NCBI GenBank assembly: GCA_964521095.1 | Contig: CAZFPJ010000002.1 | Location: forward strand, 21,108 to 85,107 | Source of the DNA: an uncultured Candidatus Saccharibacteria bacterium | GTDB taxonomy: Bacteria; Patescibacteriota; Saccharimonadia; Saccharimonadales; 2-12-FULL-41-12 | Direction of reading: 5' to 3' | DNA: 64,000 bases | Shown here: in pieces, positions 34,891 through 35,025 of the stretch | Numbering within the stretch: the stretch's first letter is position 1 | How the letters are laid out: every line of letters begins with the position of its first letter | The notes under the pieces: generated by a model | Databases searched by the model: none | Told to the model about the DNA's origin: nothing | What the model saw: the letters and a program-made list of their open reading frames with translations, nothing else | Made by a program: the position numbers and the translations under genes

Positions 34891-35025
34891 ATCTTCCCAG
34901 CTCCTTGTATTTGGCTATCATGAGACACCCACAAGCGGGTTTCTCATCGCTCCGGGCACGAAGTAAATTCGATGCTCGGGCTTCTCTTCCCAAAATGCTC
35001 ATCTTCCCAGCTCCTTGTATTTGGC
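34891..35025. repeat. Perfect 25-bp direct repeat (34891-34915 and 35001-35025) flanking an 85-bp hairpin-rich insert between rfbB and rfbC
   Basis: ATCTTCCCAGCTCCTTGTATTTGGC occurs twice, 110 bp apart. Both copies encode AKYKELGR on the minus strand, which is the rfbB C-terminus. Confidence 0.9.

Follow-up and report, generated by a model that had tools for sequence, protein, structure and literature searches.

A probable interspersed structured element at the rfbB/rfbC junction of a Saccharibacteria bacterium and the repeat family to which it belongs

The window analysed in this study is a 64-kb stretch of DNA from an uncultured Candidatus Saccharibacteria bacterium. Its minus strand carries an rfb operon in which the rfbB and rfbC genes are separated by a 110-bp feature, made of an exact 25-nt direct repeat, ATCTTCCCAGCTCCTTGTATTTGGC, around an insert of 85 nt. 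This feature, and the family of structured repeats to which the insert belongs, are the subject of the present analysis.

The rfbB/rfbC junction and its insert

As shown in Table 1, the two copies of ATCTTCCCAGCTCCTTGTATTTGGC flank the insert at the positions given in an earlier note on this DNA, and they are the only ones in the window: no further match was found there at up to three mismatches, and 100 shuffles gave none. The repeat is exactly 25 nt long, because the neighbouring bases differ on either side. Reading of the minus strand confirmed the coding content that the earlier note had assigned to the repeat, in that either copy is translated as AKYKELGR, the proximal copy closes rfbB with TGA, and the distal copy leads into TAA-CCC-ATG of rfbC. 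The distal copy provides a Shine-Dalgarno-like AAGGAG and the stop-codon context directly upstream of rfbC. Because all close homologues of RfbB end in ...KY(K/Q)E(L/I)GR, the proximal copy is the native C-terminus. By the source names of close homologues, the organism belongs to Candidatus Saccharimonadales. The identical junction was found in the independent assemblies SRR14271332, SRR14271331, and SRR25435867, which indicates that the 110-bp feature is not an assembly artefact.

Table 1. Features of the rfb region and of the window, and selected copies of the element at other loci (L numbers; positions within each locus).
Feature	Position	Strand	Evidence
rfbB, dTDP-glucose 4,6-dehydratase, 336 aa, TGA at 35001-34999	34999..36009	-	ORF list, homologues, Pfam domains, homologue C-termini
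Proximal (upstream) 25-nt copy: last 8 rfbB codons and T of stop	35001..35025	-	
Bridging mini-ORF, 37 codons and stop	34889..35002	-	gene call in Logan contig, translation, orthologous ORFs
Non-conserved 5' leader, GAGCAUUUU	34992..35000	-	junction dissection
Conserved 72-nt core, GGGAAGAG...GUCUCAU	34920..34991	-	alignments, covariance model R1
Purine-rich 5' motif, GGGAAGAGAAGCC (family consensus GGGAAGAGCAGCC)	34979..34991	-	alignments A1 and A2, columns nearly invariant
Hairpin 2 domain with 2-bp basal helix; sequence variable family-wide, pairing covaries	34949..34981	-	
Hairpin 1, AUGAGAAACCC-GCUUGU-GGGUGUCUCAU, conserved A.G mismatch; most conserved part of the family	34920..34947	-	
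3' tail, four nt, GAUA	34916..34919	-	
Distal 25-nt copy; read as mini-ORF C-terminus	34891..34915	-	
rfbC, dTDP-4-dehydrorhamnose 3,5-epimerase, 185 aa	34328..34885	-	
rfbD	33481..34326	-	
DUF4258/DUF2283 pair and 92-aa GIY-YIG ORF	32745..33517	-	
rfbA	31891..32748	-	
PhdYeFM antitoxin/PIN toxin pair	~40317..40965	-	
AdoCbl-II (cobalamin) riboswitch aptamer	44355..44433	+	40.5 bits, gathering score 36.5
5S-linked copy, L110	505..594		
5S-linked copy, L123	356..446		
5S-linked copy, L146	1117..1207		
5S-linked copy, L196	371..449		
5S-linked copy, L198	833..908		
5S-linked copy, L128	2997..3072		
lepA-flanking pair, L124	44..117 and 1915..1987		
lepA-flanking pair, L190	3215..3289 and 5103..5175		
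lepA-flanking pair, L178	3404..3480 and 5295..5368		

The insert is composed of a 9-nt leader, a 72-nt core, and a 4-nt tail. The leader opens with GA, which forms a new TGA stop for rfbB, and the ATG of a mini-ORF (open reading frame, ORF) is completed by the first G of the leader. Against the covariance model R1 of the repeat family, the copy in the window scores 84 bits (E = 2e-20), with the model spanning positions 34918-34993; in the corresponding alignment the first 10 nt of the purine-rich motif are unpaired, and its final GC starts the basal helix of the hairpin 2 domain. The two hairpins described in the earlier note were recovered by folding on both strands, where the 85 nt reach -27.7 kcal/mol (z = -2.3) on the operon strand and -31.9 kcal/mol (z = -5.0), with the same hairpins, on the plus strand. 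A terminator scan found no intrinsic terminator on either strand at positions 34889-35025, the sequence after the hairpins being GAUAGCC on the operon strand and CUUCUCUUCCC on the plus strand, and a promoter scan of the element region returned a single promoter-like site, at chance level, on the plus strand.

Two other identities were considered for the structured region and rejected. A hammerhead or another small ribozyme was suggested by GAUGAGAAAC...GUC; stem II is absent, position 17 would be G, and there is no Rfam hit. For hairpin 1 as a sigma-70 promoter, with ATGAGA as the -35 and CATnAn as the -10 element, the -10-like positions are unconserved and the spacer follows the length of the loop.

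As shown in Table 2, close relatives carry either a filled or an empty junction. The empty alleles, with a TAATG overlap of the two genes at 84-90% RfbB identity, bear out the proposal of the earlier note that a small structured element was inserted at a once-tight rfbB/rfbC junction, and most of about 40 more distant Saccharibacteria-like rfbB/rfbC junctions are tight too. L005 represents a deletion remnant, because its spacer keeps only GGGAAGAGCAGCG and the distal repeat. At the level of sequence comparison, the ancestral state of the junction is thus shown to be an overlapping stop and start, which is still present in relatives.

Table 2. State of the rfbB/rfbC junction and of the bridging mini-ORF in the window and in related loci.
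Locus	RfbB identity	Junction	Mini-ORF	Start	End
Window	100%	filled	37 codons	ATGA	TAA, 3 nt, ATG
L004	94%	insert of the window with 2 substitutions	37 codons	ATGA	TAA, 3 nt, ATG
L005	92%	37-nt spacer, deletion remnant	14 codons	ATGA	ATGA
L006/L007	90%	empty, TAATG overlap			
L088	86%	empty, TAATG			
L089	84%	empty, TAATG			
L145	79.5%	filled	36 codons	ATGA	ATGA
L133	79%	filled	37 codons	ATGA	TAATG
L105	74%	filled	35 codons	TAATG	ATGA

The ATG of the mini-ORF shares bases with the rfbB stop (ATGA). From there the frame passes through both hairpins, coincides with the RfbB frame in the distal repeat, and closes with TAA 3 nt before the ATG of rfbC. The earlier note had held that the insert breaks the coupling of rfbB and rfbC. 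In view of this 37-codon bridging ORF the coupling is not visibly broken, and the arrangement is kept in L133, L145, and L105 as well as in the L005 remnant. In all, three other species have orthologous ORFs of 35-37 codons, and a fourth has the 14-codon remnant. The frame is retained despite the differing lengths of hairpin 2 and the other 5' frame in L105; we estimate the chance of its being kept in four independent lineages at less than about 1%, from (1/3)^4 before stop codons are considered. Of 15 operon-internal copies at other sites, in both orientations, 11 have an ORF running from the upstream stop through the element. From the frame retention and these ORFs, we infer selection for the passage of ribosomes across the element. 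The distal repeat with its AAGGAG is conserved between lineages beyond the expectation for a neutral duplicate.

Two side observations concern the same junction. In a comparison of L004 with window positions 34328-36009, the N-terminal half of RfbB differs, and identity reaches 98-100% in its C-terminal ~100 residues, in the insert, and in rfbC, a mosaic that suggests recombination inside rfbB. At L010 (2508-2627; RfbB 79%), an unrelated insert of 116 nt with the palindromes CCGGCGCAGGCCGG and TCCCAAATTAAATTTGGGA occupies the same junction and carries a bridging ORF of 42 codons that overlaps its neighbours as ATGA and TAATG; this insert may represent a second family of the same habit.

A family of structured repeats in Saccharibacteria

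The hairpin 1 pattern ATGAGANACCCN{4,8}GGGTNTCTCAT was searched in species-representative genomes and gave at least 119 stretches, compared with about 5 expected by chance according to our estimate for 596 Gb, two strands, five gap lengths, and 20 fixed bases. About 100 of the listed stretches, from about 85 assemblies, carry the same larger unit and are regarded as members of one family. Nearly all of the listed copies are on contigs whose titles name Saccharibacteria, Saccharimonadales, or Saccharimonadia, and a single genome has up to four. The remaining matches are perfect-palindrome hairpins in unrelated phyla, several of them T-tailed and terminator-like; accordingly, matches in Clostridium, Oscillospiraceae, Ruminococcus, Coriobacteriia, and others, which lack the GGGAAGAG module, were rejected as members. 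The search of viral contigs gave one perfect-palindrome terminator and nothing more. Full-length members also occur on contigs titled Binatia, Bacillota, and Verrucomicrobiia (L170, L178, and L157), which are probably mis-binned Saccharibacteria.

The family consensus is CC-GGGAAGAGCAGCC-[hairpin 2]-GCGCG-ATGAGAAACCC-[4-8 nt]-GGGTGTCTCAT. In many copies a small AAGGCGAAGCCG hairpin comes next, and some copies have an extra hairpin inside hairpin 2. The covariance model R1 added at least 14 diverged copies within 728 kb around the seed copies. The resulting density of about one copy per 50 kb agrees with the single copy in the window, where no second one was found with a 36-nt probe, with blastn-short or motif searches, or with the covariance model run unfiltered; the copy number is estimated at tens per genome. 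The multicopy nature that the earlier note had proposed to check is therefore found in related genomes, and the window itself holds one copy. Of three copies compared with Rfam 15 at E <= 10, the one in the window had no hit, and the tRNA- and 5S-linked ones had only chance-level hits. The literature search found no description of the element, the literal sequence strings matching only unrelated papers, mostly of the PCR-primer type, and no paper on repeats of Saccharibacteria or Patescibacteria. The element thus apparently belongs to an undescribed, Saccharibacteria-wide family of the interspersed structured-repeat kind.

The structure is supported by covariation. RNAalifold, run on a MAFFT alignment of 90 copies, gave a consensus with hairpin 2, its 2-bp basal helix, and hairpin 1, with compensatory changes in 12 of 22 pairs. 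By pair counting, 94.7% of the cells are paired, and 240 cells show a double change, for which shuffles gave 61 +/- 8 and slid controls no more than 104. Because the search pattern itself fixed hairpin 1, this hairpin does not vary among the copies found with it; diverged copies show compensatory changes there (CTGAGA.../...TCTCAG, TCGAGA.../...TCTCGA, and upper stems with GGGG/CCCC), and these variants define at least three subfamilies, including B and C. In 74 of the 90 copies, the better-folding strand is the complement of GGGAAGAG, because a conserved A.C in hairpin 2 is G.U on the opposite strand and the conserved A.G in hairpin 1 is C.U. This asymmetry is essentially that of the one A.C/G.U position, and the model-fitted alignment leans the opposite way. 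The orientation of the copies shows no relation to the local GC skew (mean -0.001; 60 of 114 positive), which is an indirect test of the direction of replication.

The copies are intergenic and lie at gene ends in either orientation, and all four configurations of neighbouring gene orientations are seen. In about 15 copies, the GGGAAGAG end lies within about 15 nt, and mostly 0-8 nt, past the stop of a co-directional gene; in about 22 copies, a convergent gene has its stop within about 6 nt of the hairpin 1 end. Twelve copies precede a tRNA gene (Asn, Met, Pro, Ser, or Trp) by 6-14 nt, all in the same orientation, and six or seven precede the 5S rRNA gene by 9-16 nt, inside long 23S-5S spacers. 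Since the copies linked to tRNA and 5S genes are co-oriented with them and necessarily co-transcribed, the GGGAAGAG strand is certainly transcribed there. The 23S-5S spacer is unusually long (~280-415 nt) in five of the six 5S loci listed in Table 1, namely those in which the locus includes the 23S end. At L198, a further copy lies just past the 5S gene. The neighbours examined are housekeeping genes, many of them for translation, such as lepA, alaS, ychF, and an FtsJ/S4 methyltransferase gene.

Copies that touch a coding end are flanked by a direct duplication of that same end. Flanking direct repeats scoring 13-54 were found in 30 of 111 copies, for which mismatched-flank controls mostly scored at most 9, so the 25-nt repeat of the window is a family trait, and the remark in the earlier note that this duplication is unusually long applies to the family. 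The duplications are often perfect and vary in length, with 25, 26, 31, 33, 35, 39, 48, and 54 nt among them. They comprise the 3' end of rfbB (window, L133, L145, and L105), the 5' end of lepA (at least eight loci), the 3' ends of lepA, alaS, ychF, and the FtsJ/S4 methyltransferase gene, and an msrA/FMN-reductase junction. At lepA 5' ends, the upstream copy of the duplication opens an ORF of about 49 codons through the other strand of the element, with a GTGA overlap with the real lepA start. At L103 (1-330), the lepA 3' end occurs three times around two elements, one of subfamily B (69-145) and one of subfamily A (200-273), which indicates two independent insertions into one target. The repeats of the window and of L133 are each internally perfect, yet the two sequences disagree at 7 of 25 positions, so that gene conversion or repeated re-insertion is needed to account for them. 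At L124, L190, and L178, lepA is flanked on both sides by inverted elements whose GGGAAGAG ends face the gene (Table 1); at L124 and L190 at least, each element is accompanied by a duplication of the adjoining lepA terminus.

Nature of the element and alternative explanations

REP and Correia repeats are co-transcribed with their neighbours and can influence how the mRNA is processed or how stable it is. REPs are about 35 nt long, number hundreds per genome, and are genus-specific, and the Correia repeats of Neisseria end in inverted repeats and show a TA duplication. The present element differs in its length of about 72 nt, its two different hairpins with a conserved single-stranded motif, its class- or phylum-level conservation, and its long duplications; hairpin 1, an imperfect palindrome of 26-30 nt, is only part of the 72-nt unit, and the density is about one copy per 50 kb, with tens of copies per genome. 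The element is like REP/BIME, REPIN, and Correia (NEMIS) repeats (see also PMC3184786) in being a short structured extragenic repeat at gene ends with imperfect hairpins. In being short, non-autonomous, interspersed, and multicopy, with a 72-nt core too small for a transposase, the element loosely fits the label of a MITE (miniature inverted-repeat transposable element), for which the earlier note had proposed a check. The label fails at the ends, GGGAAGAGCAGCC... and ...GGGTGTCTCAT, in which inspection of alignment A2 showed no terminal inverted repeat (best ungapped register 6/10), and in the target duplication, which is long and variable (18-54 nt) rather than short and of fixed length. Long, variable target duplications are made by IS1634 (17-478 bp) and IS1630 (19-26 bp) of mycoplasmas. 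These offer a precedent for variable duplications of tens of base pairs; they are autonomous, with a transposase and terminal inverted repeats, and neither a transposase gene nor a terminal repeat was seen linked to the element.

The closest functional analogue of the bridging mini-ORF is found in MIRU (mycobacterial interspersed repetitive units), intergenic repeats of 40-100 bp that are co-transcribed within polycistronic operons (Supply et al. 1997, summarised in PMC3184786). According to the same source, MIRU contain small ORFs overlapping the flanking genes, occur at filled and empty sites, and are often tandem, with tetranucleotide direct repeats. The likeness lies in the operon-internal position and in an ORF that overlaps the flanking stop and start, and ATGA or TAATG overlaps of this kind are present at six rfbB/rfbC loci and at other operon-internal copies. 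The present element differs in sharing no sequence with MIRU, in being usually single rather than tandem (with the one two-element stack at L103), in its covarying two-hairpin structure, in its duplications of 13-54 nt, in its adjacency to tRNA and 5S genes, and in its either orientation. A second parallel is given by RPE (Rickettsia palindromic elements), small repeats of reduced genomes that are often in frame with coding sequence (Ogata et al. 2000, summarised in PMC10969869). Both are small palindromic repeats that tolerate translation in a reduced genome; RPE, at ~105-150 bp, are described there as lying inside host ORFs and forming part of the host protein. In the present family, duplication of the gene end leaves the host protein intact, and the element is translated as a separate coupled mini-ORF or upstream ORF. 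No in-frame insertion of the RPE type was encountered, since RfbB keeps its native C-terminus and lepA restarts after the element.

From the evidence above, we consider it probable that the 85 nt are a small interspersed structured element that was inserted at the rfbB stop and is now bridged by a coupled mini-ORF. Several points weigh against this interpretation. The window holds only one copy, and the patchy pattern of filled and empty sites fits a single old insertion with repeated precise loss as well as re-insertion at a hot spot. The duplication lengths are variable, and gene conversion or selection, rather than recent insertion, may be what keeps the repeats identical at old sites. Inspection gave no terminal inverted repeats, no target duplication of fixed length was found, and no transposase or linked enzyme turned up, no search having been aimed at associated enzymes; therefore no known mobilisation route can be assigned. 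About one to two of three frames per orientation are free of stops across a typical copy, and a random frame of 25 codons is open in about 30% of cases by our estimate, so some ORFs are expected by chance; translation of the mini-ORF is itself predicted from the sequence only. Finally, selfish repeats are not usually conserved in sequence across a phylum, and such conservation is a hint that the element serves the host.

A possible, though rather doubtful, explanation is that the family is chiefly a cis-acting RNA module with a function for the host, such as a signal for RNase processing or RNA stability or a protein-binding structure in translation-apparatus transcripts, and not selfish mobile DNA; the rfb copy would then tune the rfbB:rfbC ratio via its structure and translated linker. 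The conservation of sequence and covarying structure across the ~85 assemblies listed, the co-oriented and co-transcribed copies at tRNA and 5S genes, the many translation genes among the neighbours, the conserved non-Watson-Crick positions, and the optional extra hairpins in hairpin 2, as found in many structured RNAs, all argue for such a module. It accords poorly with copies beside protein genes in both orientations and all four gene configurations, with the several subfamilies per genome, two of them stacked at one site, and with the lack of an Rfam match, and the flanking target duplications and empty sites mark insertion rather than an ancestral regulatory site. The two views are not exclusive, because a mobile repeat can be co-opted.

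The mode of mobilisation bears on a further alternative, which we regard as unlikely: that the element moves as single-stranded DNA through an HUH/Y1-type enzyme, like REP/REPIN with RAYT transposases or like palindromic elements derived from IS200/IS605, with hairpin 1 as the recognition site. The 4-8-nt loop and conserved internal mismatch of hairpin 1 fit recognition of an extruded hairpin rather than of duplex DNA, the consensus shows no terminal inverted repeats on inspection, and strands differ at the non-Watson-Crick positions, with the better folding of the GGGAAGAG complement noted above, although this asymmetry comes mostly from one conserved position and is weak evidence. HUH/Y1-type systems are not known to duplicate their target on insertion, whereas duplications of 13-54 nt are common here. 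The orientation is unrelated to local GC skew, an indirect indicator, the estimated tens of copies per genome are low for REPs, and no associated enzyme turned up, none having been specifically searched for.

It is very improbable that the 37-aa ORF is itself the functional unit, a gene for a small protein that has spread. Gene callers do predict it, and the rfb copies of four species share a peptide core, ...RDEKPxxGCLI...KYxELGR; these shared residues follow from a conserved nucleotide core read in one frame together with the duplicated RfbB tail. Moreover, the tRNA- and 5S-linked copies lie outside ORFs, the frame through the lepA copies uses the opposite strand and encodes an unrelated peptide, the 14-aa remnant of L005 lacks the core, and the 5' part in L105 is in another frame. 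The peptide of the mini-ORF is probably not the functional product. A one-off scar of local recombination (the other possibility raised in the earlier note) or of slippage, with no mobile or repeated element, would agree with the single copy in the window and is already refuted by the ~100 listed homologous copies at unrelated loci and the similar duplications at other genes.

Beyond the interpretation of the rfb copy as an inserted and bridged element, we put forward more tentatively that the family is a new class of small structured element of Saccharibacteria and related members of the candidate phyla radiation (CPR), that its spread makes long, variable duplications of the target (about 18-54 nt), that old copies persist as translated intercistronic linkers, upstream ORFs, or conserved 5' leaders of tRNA and 5S genes, and that the flanking repeats evolve in concert. 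Long, variable duplications fit neither DDE transposases, nor HUH single-strand transposition, nor site-specific integration, and this proposal therefore includes a new mobilisation route, which may involve widely spaced nicks, template switching, or an RNA intermediate.

Neighbouring features, proposed history and significance

The rfb operon contains a second insertion, a cassette of the DUF4258/DUF2283 pair and the GIY-YIG ORF between rfbD and rfbA (Table 1), with stop/start overlaps with its neighbours; at L005 and L088, rfbD overlaps rfbA directly. It is without flanking duplication, inspection of its junctions having shown none like that at rfbB/rfbC. Further along the same polysaccharide cluster, the PhdYeFM/PIN pair lies between Bac_transf and glycosyltransferase genes, and the cobalamin riboswitch aptamer of Table 1 was also detected in the window.

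For the rfbB/rfbC junction, the following history is proposed. The element would have inserted at the stop codon of rfbB, and the event would have duplicated the last 25 nt of the gene, so that one duplicate retained the RfbB C-terminus and the other the ribosome-binding region and stop context of rfbC. The initial GA of the insert would have made the new TGA stop and the overlapping ATG. Ribosomes completing rfbB would then restart on the 37-codon ORF, melt both hairpins during translation, and terminate 3 nt before the rfbC ATG, and the chain from rfbB through the mini-ORF to rfbC would remain translationally coupled. Selection for such a coupled chain would account for the retention of the frame in every lineage.

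In practical terms, the element yields spurious small-gene calls, such as the 37-aa ORF, and the duplicated gene ends can mislead annotation and recombination analyses; as a marker of the lineage, it may also help to recognise metagenomic contigs of Saccharibacteria. Standard transposition explains neither the long, variable duplications nor the concerted identity of the repeats. The genomes of Saccharibacteria are tiny and tightly packed, with a function for nearly every intergenic base, and still harbour a conserved structured repeat in tens of copies. The rfb junction suggests how such insertions may be tolerated: the element sits at a gene end, that end is duplicated, and a short translated linker would preserve the stop/start coupling. 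The copies just upstream of tRNA and 5S genes raise, in addition, a possible role of the element in the maturation of stable RNAs.

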